Part shown: one piece after another, positions 1,385 to 63,881 of the stretch
Layout: every line of letters starts with the position of its first letter
How positions within the stretch are numbered: the first letter of the stretch is position 1
NCBI GenBank assembly: GCA_029855935.1
Contig: JAGSHN010000004.1
Location: 64,001-128,000, forward strand
Length of the DNA: 64,000 bases
Direction: 5' to 3'
DNA from: Candidatus Thorarchaeota archaeon
Lineage (GTDB): Archaea; Asgardarchaeota; Thorarchaeia; Thorarchaeales; Thorarchaeaceae
Made by a program: the position numbers and the translations under genes
The notes under the pieces: generated by a model
The model's database searches: none
Told to the model about the DNA's origin: nothing
The model's input: the letters and a program-made list of their open reading frames with translations, nothing else

Positions 1385-2251
1385 TCAGTCAATGCCATCA
1401 TAGTAGCCGGGCCTCGAGACGAGATGGCCAAGAGAGACGTTCATCAGTGCAAGACTCGCAATCATCGCCTCCTCAAGGCGCACTGTTTCTGTCCCCTGAT
1501 TCGGTATGGTGTTGACAACATAGTCCACGAGAGAGAGAAACTCCTCCGACCCCTTAACGAGTATGTCGGGAAGACCAAGCTTGGGCCCTCCGAAGAGCGC
1601 GATGAGATGCCGGGGCCCGGTCACCGACTCGACTATATCGTTGATAACCGACTTGAAGTCGGTACCCCGGCGCGAGAAGACCACACGTACGGCTCTATTC
1701 TGTTGTTTCAGCCACTCCACAAGATTCGGCACCACGGCGACCTCGAAGCCGAAGTATCGACTCACACTGTGGCGTTCCACTGGTCGCAGGGTAATGCGGG
1801 GGCTGGTTCGGGTCACCCTGAACAGGGTGGGTGTGCGATTGTCCACGTCAAAGTTGACCTTCACCAGAGAGGCCAGTCCGATGTCCACTGTGCGAGGACC
1901 GACCCCGATGCCCCATCTCACATCACCCACACGTACCTCGCTTGGCGAGGTCTCGAGGGGATGACTCCGTGTTCTGAGTGGAGGCAACAGGCCAGCATAC
2001 CTCAGTGTAGGGGTGCGAGCAAAGACCCGTTTCCGGAGATACTGTGGTGTGTCCATGTATCTGAGAAGACGGACTAGTGTGTCCACATCACGTTGCTGGC
2101 GTGAGGGCAGACGACCGGTGGTATAGACTATGATGCGGTCCACACAGAACACGGCCAGTGCACGGGCAATCCGGCCGGCCAGCACGGTCTTCTCACGAAG
2201 ACTGGTTGTATTGGAGAGAGTCGTATCGGGAACTGCAGCCTCCAGTGTCAA
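1385..2251 (-). CDS. SPOUT-family RNA methyltransferase (DUF171/COG2106, C9orf114-like)
   Basis: REKT..AGRIARALAVF, YMDTPQYLRK, GLLPPL, NTIPNQGTETVRLEEA motifs; conserved position upstream of rpl3; start moved to TTG 2251 (ORF track 2302). Confidence 0.9.
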   Translation of the reverse strand: MTLEAAVPDTTLSNTTSLREKTVLAGRIARALAVFCVDRIIVYTTGRLPSRQQRDVDTLVRLLRYMDTPQYLRKRVFARTPTLRYAGLLPPLRTRSHPLETSPSEVRVGDVRWGIGVGPRTVDIGLASLVKVNFDVDNRTPTLFRVTRTSPRITLRPVERHSVSRYFGFEVAVVPNLVEWLKQQNRAVRVVFSRRGTDFKSVINDIVESVTGPRHLIALFGGPKLGLPDILVKGSEEFLSLVDYVVNTIPNQGTETVRLEEAMIASLALMNVSLGHLVSRPGYYDGID

Positions 2252-2270
2252 CGAACCCGCCTCGATGATC

Positions 2271-2720
2271 TCACAGGTCGAGGGTGAACCACAACGTAAC
2301 ACGGTCCGGACGCTGCTCGATCTTCAGGTCCGCATAGGTCATCGCCTTGACCTCGGTCCGAATGGGATGGCGCTCGATGTCAATCTCCTCGCCCCATGCC
2401 TCACCTGAAAGATGCCACCTCTGCTCACCACTGTCGTCGCGAGTTATGTAGTGCACCTTGAATCTGGAGTAGAATCGGTTGTTGAGGTCAATCAGTGCAA
2501 TGAGCTGACCGACCCACTCAACGAGAAGCTCCTCTAGGTCTATTCCATCAACGTCGACCTTGGAGGAGTGAAGTGGCCGTACCTTTGACGTGTCGACCAT
2601 CACCTCAAAGGCTGCGAGCGCAGCAGTTTCGAAGGCCTCCTCAAGGGTGGGTGCCCAGCACTCTATTGTCACGTCAGCTGTGTGTTCGTGGTACCTGAAG
2701 CCTCGAGGACCTTCGCTCAC
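2271..2720 (-). CDS. Archease (RtcB tRNA-ligase cofactor)
   Basis: FRYHEHTADV...EVKAMTY...FTLDL signature; GTG start at 2720 behind GGAGGT SD (the ORF-track extension to 2885 overlaps a tRNA). Confidence 0.93.
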   Translation of the reverse strand: MSEGPRGFRYHEHTADVTIECWAPTLEEAFETAALAAFEVMVDTSKVRPLHSSKVDVDGIDLEELLVEWVGQLIALIDLNNRFYSRFKVHYITRDDSGEQRWHLSGEAWGEEIDIERHPIRTEVKAMTYADLKIEQRPDRVTLWFTLDL

Positions 2721-2815
2721 AGCGTCGAACCTCCGGCCTGTAATCGCTCCAAGAAGCTTAAAAGCAGTTCTCAACGGAAGAACAATAGTCGCCTCCTCAC
2801 GAGGCCGACATCTAT

Positions 2816-2903
2816 GCCGAGGTAGCCAAGCCTGGACCACGGCGCTGGTCTTGAAAACCAGTGTGCTCTGCACGCAGGAGTTCAAATCTCCTCCTCGGCG
2901 CCA
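2816..2903 (+). tRNA. tRNA-Ser(TGA)
   Basis: GCCGAGG acceptor/CCTCGGC, anticodon arm CTGGT-CTTGAAA-ACCAG, long variable arm, GTTCAAATC T-loop, encoded CCA. Confidence 0.95.
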
Positions 2904-2942
2904 TCACTCATTCGCTCACTCGTTCTCCGTCAGCCGGACCGC

Positions 2943-4550
2943 TCACAGACTCTTCGCCAGATACGGGCCATCATCAACGAATCCCAGGTTTCTGTAGTAC
3001 TCCTTTACTCCAGTCCCACTGAGAACCAAGATTCGGTCGACACCGAGGTCCTCCCGTGCAGTCCGCTCCGCCTCACCCACCAGACACTCACCAAGACCCA
3101 GATGCTGCCATCTCTCAGGATCGCGCTCGCCAATCCTCACCATAGGACCAAACACCCTGAGCTCCCGTATGATTGCGCATGGACTGCACCGAACCTCGGG
3201 CCGATGCGCCGCCTCGCTCGGATAGCGGAGACGCAGGAATGCGAAGATTATGTCTTCAACTGGATCCTCAAGGGAGATGAAGACTTCAGTGCCCCCGCCG
3301 GCCTCGTAGACACGCTGAATCAGCGTCATAGTGTCGGGGTTTGCACGCCGTCCTGTACGCATCTCGTAGTGACCGACCTCGCGATAGCGAATTGTGGGAT
3401 TCCGCAGGCCCAGACGACGCATCTCCGCGTGCACGAGCTCTCGCAGATTCCCGCGGGACAACCCAGCCTCAATCTGGTGTAGGGGGATGTCGCGTTGCAT
3501 CCGCTGGATACGAACATACTCCGGCATCTCGCTCACGGCCTGTGCTATCAACGAGACAGTCTCGTCGTCGGTGTAGGGAGAGTAGCGGCCCTCTCTCCAC
3601 CATTCGTAGAGTCGCGTGTTCTTCACCACAAGCGTTGGGTAGATTTTGAGCATATCAGGACGGAAGCGCGGATCCGAGAACATCTGATGGAACATATGCA
3701 GATCCATCTCAATGTTCGAGCCAGGAAGACCGGGCATGATGTGGTAACATACCTTGAGGCCACTATCGCGAAGAATCCTTGTCGCAACTGCAGAGGCCTC
3801 AACATCGTGACCTCGACCAACAAGCGTCAGAACCTCATCTGAGAGGGACTGTACTCCAATCTCCACACGGGTCGCGCCCATCTCAAGCATCTCGTCCACT
3901 GTGGCAGGAGATATCCAGTCAGGGCGGGTCTCGAAGGTTGTCCCAATGTTGCGCACTGCTGCTGTTTCGTTGACCCGTTTGGCCGCCTCCAAAGTAGGAC
4001 TCACAGAGCCGTTCATAGCATCGAGGCATCTCTTGACGAACCACTCGCGGTAGGCACGCTCCTTGGAGCACCAGTCCCCGCCCATGACTATCAACTCCAC
4101 CTTCTGAACGGGGTGACCAATCGTGCGCAGCTGACCGAGACGAGAACGGACCTGCCGATACGGATCAAACTTGTTCTGCAGTCCGCGCATAGTCGCGGGT
4201 TCATATCCAGTGTAGCTCTGTGGCACACCAAGATCAGGTCCTCCGGGACAGTATGCACATTTCCCGTGAGGACAGGCCTGCGGCTCTGTCATTACTGCAA
4301 CAACAGCCACTCCAGAGAGAGTGCGAACAGGTCGCTTCTGAAGAAAGGGGAGGAGAACCTCTCTCTCCTCAGGAACGGCGCACTCGAGCACATCGGCATT
4401 GGAGGGGATGCGGGCCCGGCGAAACCGGCCACATACCCTGTTCTTGATGCGGTTGATTGTCTGCCTTGTCAGAGGCTCAGGAGAACTGAGCAGAGCCTCT
4501 ATGATTGCCCGGTTCACTTCATAGTCGCTAATGGTATCAGTCTGGGCCAT
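2943..4550 (-). CDS. elp3: Elp3 tRNA uridine(34) acetyltransferase (radical SAM + KAT)
   Basis: RTLSGVAVVAVMT, CPHGKCAYCPGG, ETRPD, LKIYPT, RELRVFG, QHLGLG motifs. Confidence 0.95.
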   Translation of the reverse strand: MAQTDTISDYEVNRAIIEALLSSPEPLTRQTINRIKNRVCGRFRRARIPSNADVLECAVPEEREVLLPFLQKRPVRTLSGVAVVAVMTEPQACPHGKCAYCPGGPDLGVPQSYTGYEPATMRGLQNKFDPYRQVRSRLGQLRTIGHPVQKVELIVMGGDWCSKERAYREWFVKRCLDAMNGSVSPTLEAAKRVNETAAVRNIGTTFETRPDWISPATVDEMLEMGATRVEIGVQSLSDEVLTLVGRGHDVEASAVATRILRDSGLKVCYHIMPGLPGSNIEMDLHMFHQMFSDPRFRPDMLKIYPTLVVKNTRLYEWWREGRYSPYTDDETVSLIAQAVSEMPEYVRIQRMQRDIPLHQIEAGLSRGNLRELVHAEMRRLGLRNPTIRYREVGHYEMRTGRRANPDTMTLIQRVYEAGGGTEVFISLEDPVEDIIFAFLRLRYPSEAAHRPEVRCSPCAIIRELRVFGPMVRIGERDPERWQHLGLGECLVGEAERTAREDLGVDRILVLSGTGVKEYYRNLGFVDDGPYLAKSL

Positions 4551-56908: not shown

Positions 56909-57302
56909 TTGTCCCACGTATCCAACCGAGGATCCAGAAAAGGTCCTCTTGGCGGTCACAAGCCTCTTTCCAGACTTAGAGTTCAGACCCACCGAGAACG
57001 GCGTACGAGCCGAGACAAGCGGGAGAAGCGGTCTCGAGTGGCTCCGGTCGAGAATCTTCGAACGACGTATAATCGACGCCACTCGCGCTCGTCTCTACTC
57101 AAACGCTGACGATGATCACACCAGACTTCACCTTGACAAACAGGCCGGACTGCACGGCCGCGTACGCATAGTTGATGAGTTCGAGGAGGAACCCCCGCTC
57201 GGAACCATTGTGGTAGACTTCTTCTTTGAGTCCACGAGAGAGATGGAGGAGTTCATCAAGTGGATTGCTCCACCCACAGAAGATGGACGCGCGTTAATCT
57301 AG
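56892..57302 (+). CDS. UPF0201/DUF54 RNA-binding protein (COG1931)
   Basis: YPTEDPEKV..A...LFP, I.D..R, L.KQA..G, PPLG.I, W..P.T.DG. Confidence 0.85.
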   Translation: MRVVVDCPTYPTEDPEKVLLAVTSLFPDLEFRPTENGVRAETSGRSGLEWLRSRIFERRIIDATRARLYSNADDDHTRLHLDKQAGLHGRVRIVDEFEEEPPLGTIVVDFFFESTREMEEFIKWIAPPTEDGRALI

Positions 57303-58381
57303 TGATGTTGAACCACAAAGATCTCTCTTGTCAGTGCAGCATGGACACGGACCTCCACCTGAACCTCAATGGATAGAGCATGTCTGCGAATCATCTCTTC
57401 CGCCCGCATCCTGCTATCAGTACAGAGGCACATTCGCCCCCCAGCACGTAGGAGCGATGACAGTTGGCTCAACAGGGAGTCCACTAGCAGTCGTGCGTGC
57501 TCGCCCCTTGTCGAGCTTACTCGGCCATAGGGAGGGTCGGTGACTATCGAGTCACATTGAGCCAAGGGAATCTGTCGCGCGTCCCCCTGAATCAGAGAGA
57601 AGTCCACTCCACCCGTGTCTGACAAGTTGGCACGTGCACCTTGAAGCAGTTTCCAATTGATTTCAAGACCGATCACGCGTGCCCCAAGGTCAGCCGCCTC
57701 ACAGAGGATTCCTCCAGCCCCACAGAATGGGTCAAGAACCACATTGCCAGGGAGAAGACGCGCAAGATTGCACATTGCACGAGCAAGTGGGGCATTCATG
57801 ATTGATGGGTGAAAAAAGGGGCGCTTGCGCGACTTTCGCAGCATTACTTCTCTACGGGTCACGGAGCGCTGGAGGTCCCCCAAGAGGAGTGTGCCATTGC
57901 AGTCGATTGCCAACAGGGGCAGGTCGGGACTGTCTAGATTAACTCGTAGGCCAGTATTGCGCTTCACAACGGCTCCAACCTCTACGGCCAGCTCGCGACC
58001 AGAGGACCGTGGTTGACTGACGATGAAGCCTCTCAGTGCAAACGACCTTGCATTACCCAGAAACTCTGACAACGTGACAAGTCGAAGGTCCTCCGGTCTG
58101 TCGGCCTCTTCAAAGATTCTACCAGTGACCTGAAGAAATGCAGCTCGATGCAGAAGCGGTACTGTGACATCAATCTTGCTGTTAATCAGACACAGTCGCC
58201 CGCACCAGCTTGTATCGGCGGAAGGGTCGTAAGTATGTACGATTGACTCAACTTCGGCTCTTGCAAGGTCAGGTAGTTCCCCACTCACAATGGCGTACTG
58301 TCTTCTCAATGCAATCAGCTCATCGGACGAGATTGTCGCCAGCAAGAAAGATACGCTGCATAGCACCGTAGAGATGGCCAA
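57299..58381 (-). CDS. THUMP-domain tRNA (guanine-10-N2) methyltransferase, Trm11/TrmG10-like
   Basis: SGE.P.L..AE, V.L..PD, RPFFHP, LAR.M.NL, LDPFCG.GG, TDPPYG; true start probably ~58310. Confidence 0.88.
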   Translation of the reverse strand: MAISTVLCSVSFLLATISSDELIALRRQYAIVSGELPDLARAEVESIVHTYDPSADTSWCGRLCLINSKIDVTVPLLHRAAFLQVTGRIFEEADRPEDLRLVTLSEFLGNARSFALRGFIVSQPRSSGRELAVEVGAVVKRNTGLRVNLDSPDLPLLAIDCNGTLLLGDLQRSVTRREVMLRKSRKRPFFHPSIMNAPLARAMCNLARLLPGNVVLDPFCGAGGILCEAADLGARVIGLEINWKLLQGARANLSDTGGVDFSLIQGDARQIPLAQCDSIVTDPPYGRVSSTRGEHARLLVDSLLSQLSSLLRAGGRMCLCTDSRMRAEEMIRRHALSIEVQVEVRVHAALTREIFVVQHH

Positions 58382-59084
58382 TGCCAGTCATCTGCTTTGC
58401 AGATACTGGAAGAAGGACGGGGCCGCCTCCTAGGTCCTGTAGCATCCTCAGAATTGCTGTGGCATACTCCCTGTTAAGCCCTCTCGAAGACTCCAGCAAT
58501 GCCTCCTCCAGGACATACGGATCCTCAGACCAAGACACTATCTCTTCGACTTTGTCATCTGACAGGATGTCAGACTTGCTTAACAGGTTGAGCTGGGGCA
58601 ACCCAAAACGGAGATTGATAGACAGGCCCAGCAGCATCGATGATAGATATCCCTCGGGAGTGCGGGCAATATTGGCATCAAGAAGATGCAGTGTGAGAGA
58701 TGGCTCACGCTCGGCAATGGACGACACCATCAGAGGGCCAGAGTTGCGATAGGCGAACAGCTCCATCTGGCCCGGACAGTCAACAATCGCGTAGTCCACA
58801 CCCGTTTCAAAGACCTCATCACGTAGGTCCTGCACATGGTTCACAGCCATATCCAATGCGGCCACCAGACCACCATTAGGACCAAGACCGAAAGTGCGGA
58901 CTATCTCGTCATAGTCAACATACTCGCGTATATCCACATCACTGGTATAGGGGGGGCTGTCCACCCCGGGATCCAAGTTCACAATTGCAACGCTCAGCTC
59001 CATTCCGAGGAGCCACTTTTCCAGGGACGCGGTAAGTAGCGACTTTCCCGAACCAGCTGTACCAACCACAAATGTGAAGAACAT
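58320..59084 (-). CDS. GPN-loop GTPase
   Basis: GTAGSGKS, NLDPG, LGPNG, D.PGQMELF, LSKSD. Confidence 0.94.
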   Translation of the reverse strand: MFFTFVVGTAGSGKSLLTASLEKWLLGMELSVAIVNLDPGVDSPPYTSDVDIREYVDYDEIVRTFGLGPNGGLVAALDMAVNHVQDLRDEVFETGVDYAIVDCPGQMELFAYRNSGPLMVSSIAEREPSLTLHLLDANIARTPEGYLSSMLLGLSINLRFGLPQLNLLSKSDILSDDKVEEIVSWSEDPYVLEEALLESSRGLNREYATAILRMLQDLGGGPVLLPVSAKQMTGIGHLYGAMQRIFLAGDNLVR

Positions 59085-59192
59085 GGCACTCTGATGGTTT
59101 CAGACCAACAATTCGCTCTTAGATGCTTCGGACCAGACGGCGCTGGCAGTTGGAGAGAAAGGCATAACAGACAGTCGGACTGTGTGACTGCT

Positions 59193-59942
59193 ATGGTGAG
59201 AGGCGAAACGCTCAGGCGCCTTGCCGAGATAATGGCAGGAGACATCTGCTTGGCAGACGAGGATCCAGGAACCGTGATGAAACGATGGCGAGAGCGTTTT
59301 CATGTATCTCAGAAGGACCTTGCAAGGCAACTTGGTGTTTCCCCCTCCGTGATTAGTGACTATGAGAGCGGGCGAAGAAAGTCCCCACGTGTCGAAACCA
59401 TAAAGAGATTTGTCGAGGGTCTCCTTGAGATAGATGCCGCAAACGGTGGGCGTGTCGCAGCGGCAATGGAGAAGCTAGTGACGCCGGCAATCGCATCCGA
59501 CGCGATCCTAGATAGCCGAGAGTTCCGGGTGCCCGTGTTGGCACGGCTCTTTGTCGATTGGCTCAGATGCCGGGTGTTGACACATGCCCCCCTGCTAGAA
59601 AGAGAGATTTATGGCTATACGGCCCTCGACAGCATTAAGGCAATAGTTTCACTTAGCCCTAAGCAACTCCTGAGATTGTATGGAGGCACAACACGTAGAG
59701 CGGCCGTACTCACGAACGTGTCAACGGGCCGGTCTCCGATGGTGGCCATAAAGGCGAGCCAGATAGGAACATCGACAGCTGTGAAACCCGCAGTGGTCAT
59801 ACTACAGGGGGTGAAAGAGCTCGATCCACTGGCTGTCAAGATCGCAGATGGAATTCACGTTCCGCTCTGCGTTTCGGACATTCCAACACAAGAGGAGCTG
59901 GTTCGGCGATTGCGAGGATTTGACCCTATTGAGCGGAGGTAG
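59193..59942 (+). CDS. Archaeal HTH transcriptional regulator (COG1709-like)
   Basis: AGDI.L...PG..MKRWRE.F, SPSVISDYESGRRKSP, GYT..DS..AI, V.TGRSPMVAI. Confidence 0.88.
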   Translation: MVRGETLRRLAEIMAGDICLADEDPGTVMKRWRERFHVSQKDLARQLGVSPSVISDYESGRRKSPRVETIKRFVEGLLEIDAANGGRVAAAMEKLVTPAIASDAILDSREFRVPVLARLFVDWLRCRVLTHAPLLEREIYGYTALDSIKAIVSLSPKQLLRLYGGTTRRAAVLTNVSTGRSPMVAIKASQIGTSTAVKPAVVILQGVKELDPLAVKIADGIHVPLCVSDIPTQEELVRRLRGFDPIERR

Positions 59943-59947
59943 AAGAA

Positions 59948-61246
59948 TTGTTGGAACAGGCGATTGAAATAAACGACCCTATTCTTGGATTCATAGGAGT
60001 TACCGAGCTCGAAAAGAGAGTTATCGACTCGGAGCCATATCAACGGCTTCGTAGAATCAAGCAACTCTCTGGGGGGCATTTTGTATATCCTACTGCCGAA
60101 CATACGAGATTTGGCCACTGCCTCGGAGCTATGCATCTTGCATCTCGCCTGGGCGAGAAACTGTTGCCACACCTAGGTCTTGGAGATGACGATCTGCAGG
60201 AAGTTCGCGTGGCAAGCCTCCTCCACGACATTGGTCACGGGCCGTTCAGCCACGTCTTTGAGGAAGTTCTACTAGAGCATAGAGGAATGAATCATGAGGA
60301 TATGACCGAGTGGATAATCGAGGAGAGTGTAGTCGGGGATTTATTGAGTGATTTTGGGATAGTGCCCTCTCGAGTTGCTGATTTGGTTCGAGGAAGAAGG
60401 AAGAAGAAAGTGGATGCAGTCTTGGCGGGCATTGTAGCTGGGCAAATCGATGCGGACAAGATGGACTATCTCGTTCGAGATTCCTTCTACTGCGGGGTTA
60501 ATTACGGGCTCATTGACCAAGACAGGCTCTTGGACAATGTTGAGATAGGAGAGGACTATGCTATGGAGTTCTCCCTTGCCACTAGGGGCACCCTAGAGGC
60601 ATTTCTCGTGGCACGCTATGAGATGTTCATGAATGTCTACTACCACAAGACTGTGCGGAGTGTTGAGGTGATGCTCGTCAAGCTGATGACGGCGGCAAAC
60701 GATGTCTTGCAGTTGGTCGACTTTGGGAGCCCTGAGGAGTTTCTGAAACTGGACGACATCTCTGTAGTGTCGAGAATCAGAAAAGTCGATCCATCTGAGT
60801 CCGCCGAGGCGGCGGAAGCCTTGGAGATGGTCAGGCGGTTAGACTCACGCGTCCTCTACAAGCCAGCATTTGAGAAGATCCTTTACACTGGGGACAAGTT
60901 TGTTTCCAAACTGCTCACGAAACGAAAAGTGAGAGAAACCATCGAGGAAGAGATAGCGGAAGAGGCGCATGTCCCACGGGAGGAGGTGATAGTTGATGTT
61001 CCAACACTGCCGTCCGTTCCGCACAACCCCCACCAAGAGGACCCAATGGAGATCTATATTTTCGAGATTGTGGAGGGTGAGAAGAAGCGGAGAAATCTCT
61101 CAGAGTTGTCCAACATAGCAGAGATGATGAAGGGATACCTTGATGTGATACGTGTCTATACACATGCCAAATATAGAAGAAGGGTTGAGCGGGCTGCACG
61201 GGCGGTCTTCAAGGGAGTGCCCGCGAGCGCAGAGATTCATATGTGA
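59948..61246 (+). CDS. HD-domain dNTP triphosphohydrolase-like protein (COG1078, SAMHD1-like)
   Basis: QRLRRIKQL, VYP.A.HTRF.H.LG, LLHDIGHGPFSH, DADKMDYL.RD, VYYHKT. Confidence 0.92.
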   Translation: MLEQAIEINDPILGFIGVTELEKRVIDSEPYQRLRRIKQLSGGHFVYPTAEHTRFGHCLGAMHLASRLGEKLLPHLGLGDDDLQEVRVASLLHDIGHGPFSHVFEEVLLEHRGMNHEDMTEWIIEESVVGDLLSDFGIVPSRVADLVRGRRKKKVDAVLAGIVAGQIDADKMDYLVRDSFYCGVNYGLIDQDRLLDNVEIGEDYAMEFSLATRGTLEAFLVARYEMFMNVYYHKTVRSVEVMLVKLMTAANDVLQLVDFGSPEEFLKLDDISVVSRIRKVDPSESAEAAEALEMVRRLDSRVLYKPAFEKILYTGDKFVSKLLTKRKVRETIEEEIAEEAHVPREEVIVDVPTLPSVPHNPHQEDPMEIYIFEIVEGEKKRRNLSELSNIAEMMKGYLDVIRVYTHAKYRRRVERAARAVFKGVPASAEIHM

Positions 61247-61263: not shown

Positions 61264-61848
61264 TCAGTCCACGGATGCCTGGGGAAGAATACTGGCACGT
61301 ATCGCATTCTGGAACAGCATCTGAAAGGCCTCCAGAATGTTGGTGCCGTTACGGGCTACGCTCGGGAAAATTGGAACAGCAAGAGGAATCTTCACCGAGG
61401 AACGGAACTCTTGCTCACCAATCGGATTCGGCATATCATACTTGTTCAGTAGTATGACCACTGGGACTATCCTCTCGGCTGAGTCTATCATATCTACAAG
61501 CTCATTCCAGCTAGCGATGTTGTCATCCAGAAGATGCCTCTGTGAGTCGGCCACAAATACCACCCCATCGGTTCCGGTCATAACAACATCGCGAGTCGCA
61601 CGATAGAAGTCTTGACCTGTTGCAGTCCATACATGGGCACTGATACTCCACCCAGAAGATATGGGGATGGAGAGTGTGCCGTAGTCGCAGAACATCGTTC
61701 TGCCAAGAGTGTTCTCGATGGAGCTGAGTCTGTCTGGACAACCCAGCGCCTTGAACAGCCAGCGTACCGATGTCGTCTTTCCACTCATTGCTGGACCAAA
61801 GAAGACAATCTTCAGGCCAATGTTCCGATTTCCATAGTCAACAATCAT
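61264..61848 (-). CDS. Small GTPase, MglA-like
   Basis: LKIVFFGPAMSGKTT (G1), RTMFCDY (G2 with intrinsic Arg), TATGQ (G3), DGVVFVADS, NKYD (G4), SVA (G5). Confidence 0.9.
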   Translation of the reverse strand: MIVDYGNRNIGLKIVFFGPAMSGKTTSVRWLFKALGCPDRLSSIENTLGRTMFCDYGTLSIPISSGWSISAHVWTATGQDFYRATRDVVMTGTDGVVFVADSQRHLLDDNIASWNELVDMIDSAERIVPVVILLNKYDMPNPIGEQEFRSSVKIPLAVPIFPSVARNGTNILEAFQMLFQNAIRASILPQASVD

Positions 61849-61862
61849 GTCATCTTATCCTC

Positions 61863-62783
61863 CTAAGCGCCCCACATACTATCCACCCACGACCCCAACC
61901 CCAGGAGAGTATCGTCTGTGACGCAATCAGAGAAATCCTCGTGCCACTCAGCACCAATGAAGCGGACAAAACTGGAGAGACCACCAATGTTCCATCCAGC
62001 CGCCTCAAACAGGTTTCTCTCAGTCAACCGTACATTAATGCCAAACTCGCGAACAAGACGAACTCTCGTCAGAATCGTCACAGCACGACGAGCAGCGTGA
62101 ACAAAGGCGGAAATCTCCTCGACAAACATGTCACGTGTCACCATCTCAGCCTCTTCTTCCAGATCAAGGAAAGAGTCGATGAAATTGCCAGCGAGAGATT
62201 GACCACGCAGGGACTTTCTCAGGAGACGGCGAATACGCTCCAAAGCCTGTTTCTTGCGCCCCAGAATCTTGGAGAGGATGTGCGATTCTATCGTGGGTTT
62301 GGCAGGAAGGGGACGAGCCATCTTGAATTCCGCGTCGGAGGGGCCATACACCCGTAGAATGCCACAGTTGGGGGAAGAAGCCAAGATGACAGTGAGTAGA
62401 CGGTCGACCATCAGTTCGTCTATTGTTAGACCTAGCGATTTCTCGCCCAGTGAAACTCCTATTATCCAAGCCGTGAAGGAAGTTATTCTATCGATTACGA
62501 GGCGCAATGAGTTGGAGAGAGAGCAAACTATGACTCTAGAGGCCTCGAAGTCGTGACGCTCTTCTTCCAACAGGGAAAGCAGCTCATCTTCTGTCGTGAA
62601 GTCCCGCCAGAAAACGACTCGGTGTCTATGCGGGGCAATCTCAGCTAGACTCTTTACAAAATCGTCAACGACCTCCGAGTCACTGCCAACAACGAGTATG
62701 GGGTACCTGTGAAGAACAGCATGTAGCATCAATGGAAACTGTCTATCGAAGAGGGTCATCAGTTTCAGTATTGAGTACGACAT
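61863..62783 (-). CDS. Uncharacterised protein, possible core-DENN-like fold
   Basis: Translationally coupled ORF between the roadblock and GTPase genes; AVLHRYPILVVGSD...FVKSLAEIAP...FTAWIIGV recalls the cDENN pattern (fold is inference). Confidence 0.6.
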   Translation of the reverse strand: MSYSILKLMTLFDRQFPLMLHAVLHRYPILVVGSDSEVVDDFVKSLAEIAPHRHRVVFWRDFTTEDELLSLLEEERHDFEASRVIVCSLSNSLRLVIDRITSFTAWIIGVSLGEKSLGLTIDELMVDRLLTVILASSPNCGILRVYGPSDAEFKMARPLPAKPTIESHILSKILGRKKQALERIRRLLRKSLRGQSLAGNFIDSFLDLEEEAEMVTRDMFVEEISAFVHAARRAVTILTRVRLVREFGINVRLTERNLFEAAGWNIGGLSSFVRFIGAEWHEDFSDCVTDDTLLGLGSWVDSMWGA

Positions 62784-63727
62784 CAGTCATTACCTCCCAG
62801 TACTAATCGTGGCTCGGCTATTCCTGACATCAGGAGCTCGCGCAAGTCCTCCGGTATGCTCGTGGATGCCCTAGACAGCGATTCCAGAACTTGAGAGGCC
62901 TCGGCAAGATAGTGGCGCAATAGAAGACGAATGAGACCAAGCTTCTGGTTTGTGTGACCGACCCAGAGACTAAAGACTCCGTTGGGAACGGAGTAGAGAA
63001 AGTGGCGGCCACGTTCAGCCTCACAGAGAACTCGTTGAAGAGAGGCGTTCCTGAGGGTTCGCACAACACGTTCAGATGCCCCGTGCAGGGCAAATGACAT
63101 GGCAGCGAATCTGTCGTCTGTGAATCCCGTCAGAGATATTCGGATTCCACCATTGAGAGCAAAGAAGGCAGAGTGAGTCCCAGGAATTGTGTCACTGATC
63201 TGTTGGAGAATATTACGAAGGCCGAGAGCATGTGCGCGATCTAGAGAAAGGATGGGGTACGAGGTCGGGTTGTGAGCAACAATACCATCTGTCACGGAGA
63301 ACCCGCTGAGCACCTCACGCGTATCGTCTGGTGAATAGGATCTCAATGGGGGCCGCCTGCCCTCAAGGTGCTCTTGGAGAAGAAACGTGATCCGTGACAG
63401 GTTCTGCTTCATTTCCATGAAGAGCGCGGCCAGATTGACACGTGGAGCGGTTGTCACTGTGAGGAAGAAGTGCGGATTCTTGGGAAGCGACGCTAGAAAG
63501 ATCTTTGAGGTGTCGGTTTCCATCAGTAGATACTTGAATGCCCCATGTACGAGTCTTGCCACTCCAAAGATTGCACAAGTGGCTGACGCGACTGAGAAGA
63601 CTTCATCTCTGCTGAACCAGACTCCGGCACTGGCGACAGGTAGCCCATCTTGCTGGATGAGTACTACGTTCTCAACGCCGACTATCTCGCGAATGTCCTG
63701 TAGTGCTTCGTTGAGCTCGCTCGTCAA
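62783..63727 (-). CDS. Tandem (double) Roadblock/LC7 (MglB-like) domain protein
   Basis: Domain 1 L.DI....GV..VVL...DGLPVAS...NLAALF.EM; domain 2 L.QI....PG...A...FAAMS.AL....ER...KLGLIR..L; probable TTG start at 63727. Confidence 0.85.
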   Translation of the reverse strand: MTSELNEALQDIREIVGVENVVLIQQDGLPVASAGVWFSRDEVFSVASATCAIFGVARLVHGAFKYLLMETDTSKIFLASLPKNPHFFLTVTTAPRVNLAALFMEMKQNLSRITFLLQEHLEGRRPPLRSYSPDDTREVLSGFSVTDGIVAHNPTSYPILSLDRAHALGLRNILQQISDTIPGTHSAFFALNGGIRISLTGFTDDRFAAMSFALHGASERVVRTLRNASLQRVLCEAERGRHFLYSVPNGVFSLWVGHTNQKLGLIRLLLRHYLAEASQVLESLSRASTSIPEDLRELLMSGIAEPRLVLGGND

Positions 63728-63881
63728 TCTATGGGCCTCACATAACAATGGTCTGCAGTAGGGTTTGGTAGAACAGTATATAATCACCACACAGCACAGT
63801 CCATATAGTCACACACAATGACAATGCCAGATTGAACCATAGCGAATTGGAAGACAGTACTGTATGAGAGATGGTGGTCAA

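Follow-up and report, generated by a model that had tools for sequence, protein, structure and literature searches.

A Thorarchaeota operon encoding a tandem roadblock protein, a predicted DENN-fold protein, and an MglA-type GTPase, shared with other Asgard archaea

What do three coupled genes at the end of a stretch of Thorarchaeota DNA encode, and how do they relate to the DENN, longin, and roadblock modules of eukaryotes? In eukaryotes, the Rab, Rag, and Arf GTPases of membrane traffic and mTORC1 nutrient signaling are under the control of these modules, whose origin is a question in eukaryogenesis on which the operon described here bears. The DNA analyzed, referred to below as the window, is a stretch of 64,000 nucleotides (nt) from a Candidatus Thorarchaeota archaeon (GenBank assembly GCA_029855935.1, contig JAGSHN010000004.1, positions 64,001 to 128,000), and the operon makes up its final 2.7 kb. 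All three open reading frames (ORFs) lie on the minus strand and encode, in this order, a tandem Roadblock/LC7 protein (gene A), a predicted stand-alone DENN+dDENN protein (gene B), and an MglA-family small GTPase (gene C). The best explanation, which we regard as likely, is that the locus represents the Thorarchaeota version of a GTPase-switch operon of three genes, one conserved through much of the Asgard archaea.

The genes are tightly packed. Gene A (62783 to 63727; 314 amino acids [aa], TTG start) is followed by gene B (61863 to 62783; 306 aa) and gene C (61264 to 61848; 194 aa). The TGA stop codon of A (62785 to 62783) and the ATG of B (62783 to 62781) have one base, an A, in common within the sequence TGATG, and the TAG stop codon of B (61865 to 61863) is followed by a 14-nt gap and then by the ATG of C at 61848. 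A GGAGGA Shine-Dalgarno element of gene C, read from the sequence, is found at 61858 to 61863 of the minus strand and overlaps the final base of the B stop codon. An earlier note on this DNA had described three tightly coupled minus-strand genes with this overlap and this gap, and its coordinates and sequence are correct. The arrangement indicates that A, B, and C are co-transcribed, and the 1-nt overlap and the 14-nt gap with its Shine-Dalgarno element suggest that they are probably translationally coupled. A scan for bacterial-type promoters and terminators, which is ill suited to archaea, gave matches at chance level.

Gene A encodes a single polypeptide of two roadblock domains. Pfam Robl_LC7 matches it in two stretches (42.2 bits, with a cutoff of 23), and in the numbering of the longest frame of A, the PDB sequence 7f8m matches residues 26 to 129 in the first half and 9jue/7yh1 match residues 185 to 302 in the second half, with an E value of 0.015. 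The AlphaFold (AF2) model of A, built on 27 orthologs, has a predicted local distance difference test (pLDDT) score of 77.7 and a predicted template modeling (pTM) score of 0.73, the latter being suggestive of a defined arrangement of the two domains. It consists of two full roadblock units (alpha-beta-beta-alpha-beta-beta-beta-alpha), with a low-confidence linker between them and a flexible tail after them. The elements of unit 1 are H2-13, E18-25, E30-35, H40-61, E64-71, E75-81, E84-93, and H99-121, and those of unit 2 are H164-180, E184-191, E195-198, H205-226, E230-237, E240-247, E250-257, and H263-287. Roadblock domain 1 (residues 1 to 121; 63365 to 63727), delimited from the alignment, the model, and the 7f8m match, is the better conserved half, and domain 2 (residues 164 to 287; 62867 to 63238), delimited from the model and the 9jue/7yh1 match, is more divergent. 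When half 1 was aligned with half 2 by hhalign, they matched end to end over 111 columns (E value, 2.3e-5), and A is therefore an internal duplication. Foldseek retrieved Asgard roadblock homodimers, a Streptomyces roadblock protein, MglB, and LAMTOR2/p14 (9jue, 7f8m, and 6h5b/6hjm) at E values of 2e-6 to 5e-5, with template modeling (TM) scores to the roadblock, MglB, and LAMTOR2 chains of 0.7 to 0.83 by target. The Pfam stretches, the two-unit model, the Foldseek matches, and the similarity between the halves all agree with the single-chain tandem roadblock protein that had been read from the letters.

In the 27-row alignment of A, G17, V18, Q25, D27, G28, P30, G35, W37, and E42 are invariant in domain 1. 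No invariant arginine is seen in this domain in the same alignment, which is consistent with a GTPase-activating protein (GAP) for which the GTPase itself supplies the arginine. After the flexible stretch that follows domain 2, a C-terminal helix is predicted at residues 293 to 300 (EDLRELLM; 62828 to 62851) in the low-confidence tail of the model, and the tail motif P-x-[LIVF]-[DE]-[LIV]-x-x-[LIFM]-[LF] is present in all 27 alignment rows, across families. By analogy, this helix may correspond to the Ct-helix of MglB, which contacts MglA at a site remote from the active site and stimulates nucleotide exchange, making MglB a dual GAP and guanine nucleotide exchange factor (GEF) (PMC6785124).

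Gene C is, judged by its sequence, an MglA-family GTPase with its own arginine and glutamine. Pfam gave Arf, Roc, and Ras matches. A phmmer search against the PDB matched residues 3 to 177 with MglA of Myxococcus and Thermus (6hjh, 6h17, 5ymx, and 3t12) at E values of 1.4e-27 to 2.5e-27, and the best non-MglA match was Rab11, at 4.8e-9. The GTPase motifs, all encoded on the minus strand, were examined in an alignment of 27 orthologs from ten Asgard families. In the P-loop GPAMSGKT (residues 18 to 25; 61774 to 61797), G18 and A20 to K24 are invariant. In switch I (GRTMFCDY), G49, R50, and T51 are invariant, and Arg50, whose codon is at 61699 to 61701, aligns with the RT of the MglA sequence DRTLFFDF, which is the position of the intrinsic arginine finger (MglA Arg53). 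The G3 motif TATGQ (residues 75 to 79; 61612 to 61626) aligns with TVPGQ of MglA; T77, G78, and Q79 are invariant and A76 is nearly so, threonine stands in place of the canonical aspartate, and Gln79 is presumed to be the catalytic glutamine. In the G4 motif NKYD (residues 135 to 138; 61435 to 61446), N135, K136, and D138 are invariant. An MglA-type GTPase with an intrinsic arginine and a G3 motif lacking aspartate was what the earlier note had proposed, and both the phmmer E values and the GRT and TATGQ motifs are in line with it. C is a single-domain protein of 194 aa and is not a Rag-type GTPase with a C-terminal roadblock domain; its Gtr1_RagA score is 20.3 bits, with a cutoff of 22.

Gene B, which lies between the two, was assigned from its predicted structure together with weak sequence signals, because the window protein has no Pfam match at an E value of ≤1 and because neither its single sequence nor a 37-row profile retrieved a DENN protein from the PDB, the top rows being designed repeats and ferritin at E values of >0.007. 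The relatives of B form 217 clusters at 90% identity, with named sources that are mostly Thorarchaeota plus single Odin- and Lokiarchaeota labels, and 67 clusters at 50% identity, reaching down to 20% identity. With 37 diverse relatives, the AF2 model of B has a pLDDT of 91.2 and a pTM of 0.87. In this model, a core DENN alpha/beta domain (residues 1 to 159; 62307 to 62783), delimited by secondary structure and alignments, precedes a dDENN-like all-helical domain (residues 164 to 304; 61872 to 62294), both encoded on the minus strand. R26-x-P28, R53, D61, F62, E75, and R83 are invariant in the core domain.

The model of B was compared exhaustively with 48,161 representative PDB chains by VIA-align. 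The list of matches was headed by DENN modules: DENND10 (residues 157 to 357) with a Z score of 12.7, the folliculin C-terminal domain with a Z score of 12.7 (root mean square deviation of 3.4 over 187 residues; model residues 1 to 282 on folliculin residues 345 to 558), SMCR8 (residues 705 to 913) with 10.7, C9orf72 (residues 202 to 468) with 10.4, and DENND1A (residues 170 to 367), ranked seventh, with 9.5. The alignments with DENN-family proteins cover both B domains, from model residue 1 to residues 282 to 292, and residue 1 of B aligns after the longin domains of the targets (folliculin residue 345, DENND10 residue 157, SMCR8 residue 705, and DENND1A residue 170). The top rows of Foldseek were folliculin, DENND1A/B, and C9orf72/SMCR8, with probabilities of 0.95 to 0.99. 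Among the 37 relatives, two match the Pfam family Folliculin_C (best E value, 4.8e-4), and one matches DENN (0.093). The language-model feature neighbors of B in the ESM Atlas are C9orf72-like, SPA, Folliculin_C, and SMCR8_C; features and shape combined add Avl9, DENND11, and FAM45/DENND10, and DENN-clan families fill 8 of the 10 shape rows. No longin or uDENN domain was found in the B chain, which starts with the core DENN domain and has relatives of about 300 aa. As modeled, B is thus a DENN+dDENN module without a longin/uDENN domain. A DENN-type middle gene had been suggested before any structure was at hand, and the model, VIA-align, Foldseek, and the Atlas neighbors support such a fold.

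Several results weigh against this assignment and against the scheme built on it. The assignment depends on a predicted structure and weak sequence signals, as stated above. Foldseek gave no PDB match at an E value of ≤1e-3 (the best was about 3e-3), and the whole-chain TM scores are low (0.3 to 0.4), because the two domains differ in orientation from those of the targets. No fused or longer relatives of B (546 to 2,000 aa), including a roadblock-DENN fusion, were found, which is weak evidence; in the two longer relatives (400 and 434 aa), Pfam finds no additional domain, and the 400-aa one shows loop insertions in the alignment. Finally, P-loop ATPases match B with Z scores of 8 to 10, most of these alignments being confined to residues 1 to 159. 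B could accordingly be a degenerate P-loop NTPase derivative, such as an inactivated AAA+ or VirB11-like protein with a helical lid, its likeness to DENN proteins being convergent or very distant. The matching ATPases (RuvB-like proteins, VirB11/HP0525, CpaF, GspE, and PilT, on residues 1 to 159) and the AAA+ proteins interleaved among DENN proteins in the Foldseek list speak for this derivation, as does the fact that the DENN core shares the topology of a minimal P-loop NTPase domain, without its nucleotide-binding residues, as described by Zhang, Iyer, He, and Aravind (PMC3521125). However, DENN modules score higher (Z scores of 10.4 to 12.7) in alignments that cover both domains, the weak but specific sequence matches are to Folliculin_C and DENN and include no ATPase families, and the Atlas neighbors belong to the DENN clan in 8 of 10 rows. 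Neither a Walker A (GxxxxGK[ST]) nor a Walker B motif is present in B; the loop after strand 1 reads PILVVGSDSEVVD, and the 37 relatives have no conserved Walker A motif, in agreement with the published description of the DENN core (PMC3521125). Identification of B as a P-loop NTPase was rejected on the absence of Walker motifs and the longer and stronger DENN matches, and we consider descent from such an enzyme very unlikely.

Are the three genes inherited together? Profile searches with A and B were made in a sample of 301 genomes of the phylum, representing 30 families. The B profile matched 170 of the 301 genomes, strongly in 10 of the 30 families: f1 (74 of 76 genomes), f9 (57 of 68), f12 (16 of 19), f3 (4 of 4), f15 (4 of 4), f24 (5 of 7), and f2, f6, f8, and f28 (1 of 1 each). 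Families f22 and f30 gave weak matches alone (E values of 1e-4 to 1e-6), and B was not found by profile in the remaining eighteen families (e.g., 0 of 28 genomes in f5, 0 of 11 in f14, and 0 of 11 in f27). The A profile matched 169 of the 301 genomes, in the identical ten families. Outside the window's own family, 30 loci were fetched from the other nine families, and 29 of them have A, B, and C in this order on a single strand, with intergenic spacings of -4 to +23 nt. A locus search with the GTPase alignment gave 80 best loci, all of them from Thorarchaeota, and 76 of these contained A, B, and C together; of the four without the full trio, three represent a more distant MglA paralog and one is at a contig end. 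Across families, conservation is limited to A-B-C, and the flanking genes, encoding HD and helix-turn-helix (HTH) proteins, are kept only in the Thorarchaeota family, in about 90% of its loci. The recurrence of the A-B-C order in ten Asgard families is far more than chance would give, so the synteny survey that had been suggested across Asgard genomes found the three genes to be co-conserved.

Genome G138 of family f9 departs from this pattern. There, 46 nt separate the adjacent genes A and C (locus L144, G138:C76, 1728 to 3330), and B is found by itself on another contig (locus L056, G138:C139, 3454 to 4350), flanked by an uncharacterized 230-aa gene and a gene for pyruvate formate-lyase. B is thus naturally unlinked in this genome, and A and C can therefore be encoded as a unit without an adjoining B, which is a further point against the three-gene switch.

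Does C belong to the module, or is it a co-transcribed passenger beside two regulators of some other Rag-, Arf-, or Ras-like GTPase? Candidates for such a partner are not scarce, since at least 11 small GTPases are encoded in the genome of the window, namely C and two paralogs of the MglA type plus about eight others, and the DENN and longin complexes of eukaryotes act on Rab, Rag, and Arf rather than on MglA (PMC12290439). However, C adjoins A-B in every family examined, A and C stay together in G138, and the pairing of roadblock proteins with MglA is the canonical prokaryotic arrangement (PMC3521125). A passenger role for C is therefore highly improbable.

The operon itself has been described before. 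Liu et al. reported an Asgard-conserved putative operon of a Roadblock-superfamily protein, a small GTPase distinct from Rags, and a DENN-domain protein and proposed it as a folliculin-like regulator, with an analogy to Ragulator (bioRxiv 10.1101/2020.10.19.343400). The operon of the window is the Thorarchaeota ortholog of that operon and was thus already known as a computational prediction (2020/21). That work is said to have appeared also in Nature in 2021. The folliculin- and Ragulator-like idea put forward in the earlier note is therefore not original, as the preprint holds the same operon and the same analogy. The value of the operon was recognized by Liu et al. in 2020/21, and the window locus is one more ortholog with sharper annotation. 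Their roadblock protein was termed LAMTOR1-like and their GTPase Rab-like, whereas here the GTPase is clearly of the MglA type and the roadblock protein carries two roadblock domains in internal tandem plus a conserved C-terminal motif; in the present sample of species genomes, the operon occurs in 10 of 30 families and not in most of them. What is added here is the MglA type, the fused roadblock pair with its C-terminal motif, the longin-less DENN assignment, the genome with an unlinked B, and the 16S rRNA gene adjacency in two families that is given below. No experimental study of the module was found in the literature searched; DENN domains or MglA-like GTPases come up in subsequent work on Asgard GTPases, roadblocks, and longin GAP complexes, but the module is characterized in none of it.

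How might the three proteins work together? A would be the single-chain equivalent of the MglB homodimer and would bind one MglA (C) on its roadblock platform, where it could stimulate hydrolysis by positioning Arg50 and Gln79 of C, and its conserved C-terminal helix may act in nucleotide exchange, as the MglB Ct-helix does. B would dock on A-C, so that A and B together might recreate in trans the combination of longin/roadblock and DENN parts found in folliculin-FNIP and C9orf72-SMCR8. B may then be a second regulator, either an exchange factor or a co-GAP or scaffold that determines the time and place at which the switch fires. The binding of A to C, the binding of B to A-C, and the effects on the nucleotide cycle are suggested here by analogy with these systems. 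A complex prediction of A, C, and B with their own alignments, in which B was the partner, gave ipSAE values of 0.11 and 0.00, with the mark at 0.32, in a run without controls, and it speaks neither for nor against binding.

The main rival to a regulatory B holds that A and C form a complete MglB/MglA-type switch whose nucleotide cycle B does not regulate. B would instead lie downstream as an effector or adaptor recognizing MglA-GTP, or would anchor the complex at a membrane or cytoskeletal site. G138, where A and C stay adjacent with B elsewhere, favors this reading somewhat; the second MglA cluster in the genome of the window, with three single roadblock genes and no DENN gene, indicates that roadblock-MglA modules exist without DENN; and the catalytic arginines of folliculin and C9orf72-SMCR8 are in the longin and not the DENN domains (PMC12290439). 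Against this, G138 still has B, and the distribution of A over families is the same as that of B. The position of B between A and C, with its overlap of the A stop codon, suggests stoichiometric co-production, and classical DENN domains contact Rab switch regions and act as exchange factors (PMC3521125). We therefore regard a pure effector or anchor role for B as rather unlikely and retain B as a candidate second regulator.

Comparison with known systems places the operon between prokaryotic and eukaryotic assemblies in different respects. The MglA-MglB polarity switch of Myxococcus xanthus and Thermus thermophilus (PDB 3t12, 6izw, and 6h5b) has a GTPase of the same family (intrinsic arginine, T-x-x-G-Q, and NKxD) and likewise a roadblock-fold partner encoded by an adjacent gene; the MglB Ct-helix follows the roadblock fold (PMC6785124), as does the short helix predicted in A. 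Unlike the MglB homodimer, A fuses two roadblock domains in one chain, so that a 2:1 asymmetry would be hard-wired, and unlike in MglA-MglB, a DENN-fold gene is present between the roadblock and GTPase genes. The model of B superposes on the C-terminal DENN parts of folliculin-FNIP2 and C9orf72-SMCR8 (PDB 6nzd, 6ulg, 8dhb, 6lt0, 7o2w, and 7mge), which also combine a GTPase-binding pair of the longin/roadblock type with a DENN module. In contrast to these complexes, the roadblock pair and the DENN module are on separate polypeptides here, there is a single DENN protein and no DENN heterodimer, and the putative client is an MglA-type GTPase with its own arginine finger, none being conserved in domain 1 of A. 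DENND1B-Rab35 and DENND10 (PDB 3tw8, 6ekk, and 8p0v) have the core DENN and dDENN fold in common with the model of B, but the B chain lacks uDENN/longin and has no similarity that Pfam can detect. In Ragulator-Rag (LAMTOR2/3, p14/MP1; PDB 6b9x, 5y3a, and 1vet), roadblock pairs are a platform for small GTPases, and A matches LAMTOR2/p14 at an E value of about 1e-5, although its matches to prokaryotic and Asgard roadblocks are no weaker. C differs from the Rag GTPases in type and in lacking a C-terminal roadblock domain, and neither a LAMTOR1-type wrapping subunit nor a lipid anchor was seen.

What would the operon say about the origin of the eukaryotic modules? With just three proteins, it represents a compact archaeal version whose parts are still encoded by separate genes and whose putative client is an MglA of the prokaryotic type. 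As a tentative proposal, A and the longin-less B could form, in trans, a split DENN module with both GAP and GEF functions toward an MglA-type GTPase, and this module would be ancestral, via fusion and a change of client, to the eukaryotic longin-DENN complexes. If this were true, an assembly directed at MglA, and not at Rab or Rag, would be ancestral to folliculin-FNIP, C9orf72-SMCR8, and the DENND proteins. The operon is small enough for full reconstitution in vitro.

The other MglA-type GTPases show further gene contexts. The second one in the genome of the window (187 aa) is encoded on the same strand as three single-domain roadblock genes of 126, 156, and 99 aa (locus L142, G000:C14:77500-82800, 1948 to 3919), in a cluster without a DENN gene; one of these roadblock proteins also matches LAMTOR5, and another matches MAPKK1_Int (MP1). 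The third is the C-terminal domain of a 303-aa frame (locus L143, G000:C21:255800-261200, 2031 to 2942), whose roughly 120 N-terminal residues are unexplained and may reflect an overlong start; its neighbors are an aminotransferase gene and a creatininase-family gene, and no roadblock gene is nearby. A paralog of C with 48 to 52% identity is present in several other Thorarchaeota genomes, with neither A nor B within 4 kb (loci L133, L135, and L137).

The start of gene A and the region upstream of it were also examined. The longest frame of A begins at a GTG at 63790 (335 aa), and the shorter one begins at the TTG at 63727. The latter is preferred because a GAGG Shine-Dalgarno-like element (63736 to 63739, minus strand) precedes the TTG by 8 nt, because the TTG is kept in the orthologs, and because a conserved box lies inside the longer frame. 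Elements of the GGAG and GAGG types are equally placed in Thorarchaeota loci, and the equivalent TTG start, giving 315 aa, is found in nearly all Thorarchaeota orthologs of A. The promoter-like box CTGTGTGGTGATTATATAC (63776 to 63794, minus strand), with a TATA-like TTATATA at 63783 to 63777, is about 50 nt upstream of the A start. The box CTGTGTGGTGRTTATATA (63794 to 63776), which falls within the longer GTG frame, is nearly identical and at an equal distance from A in 10 of 10 Thorarchaeota orthologous loci inspected, and it may act as a B recognition element (BRE)/TATA element. The strongly conserved box CTGTGTGGTGRTTATATAG (63776 to 63794 and the equivalent place in loci L002 to L029) is followed by GATTCTAnATTGAAC in most Thorarchaeota loci, and the two are probably a BRE/TATA element plus an additional conserved 5' leader element.

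The surroundings of the operon differ between families. In families f9 and f24 (Loki-type), the operon is head to head with a 16S rRNA gene on the opposite strand, which starts about 290 to 530 nt upstream of gene A (loci L033, L034, L037, L051, L052, L054, L055, L058, L059, and L060), and many contigs of these families end 0.2 to 1 kb upstream of A because the 16S rRNA gene adjoins. This adjacency is seen neither in the genome of the window nor in other families, and it could be a hint of a link to growth control or mere lineage synteny. In the window, an HD plus HD_assoc_2 phosphohydrolase gene (59948 to 61246, plus strand) is convergent with gene C, their ends being 17 nt apart, and is preceded by a gene for an HTH_3 protein (59094 to 59942, plus strand). 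A GPN-loop/ATP_bind_1 GTPase gene (58320 to 59084) and a UPF0020/Trm-type methyltransferase gene (57299 to 58381) are both on the minus strand; the longest frame of the latter shares 62 nt with the GPN gene and was therefore probably called with too early a start.

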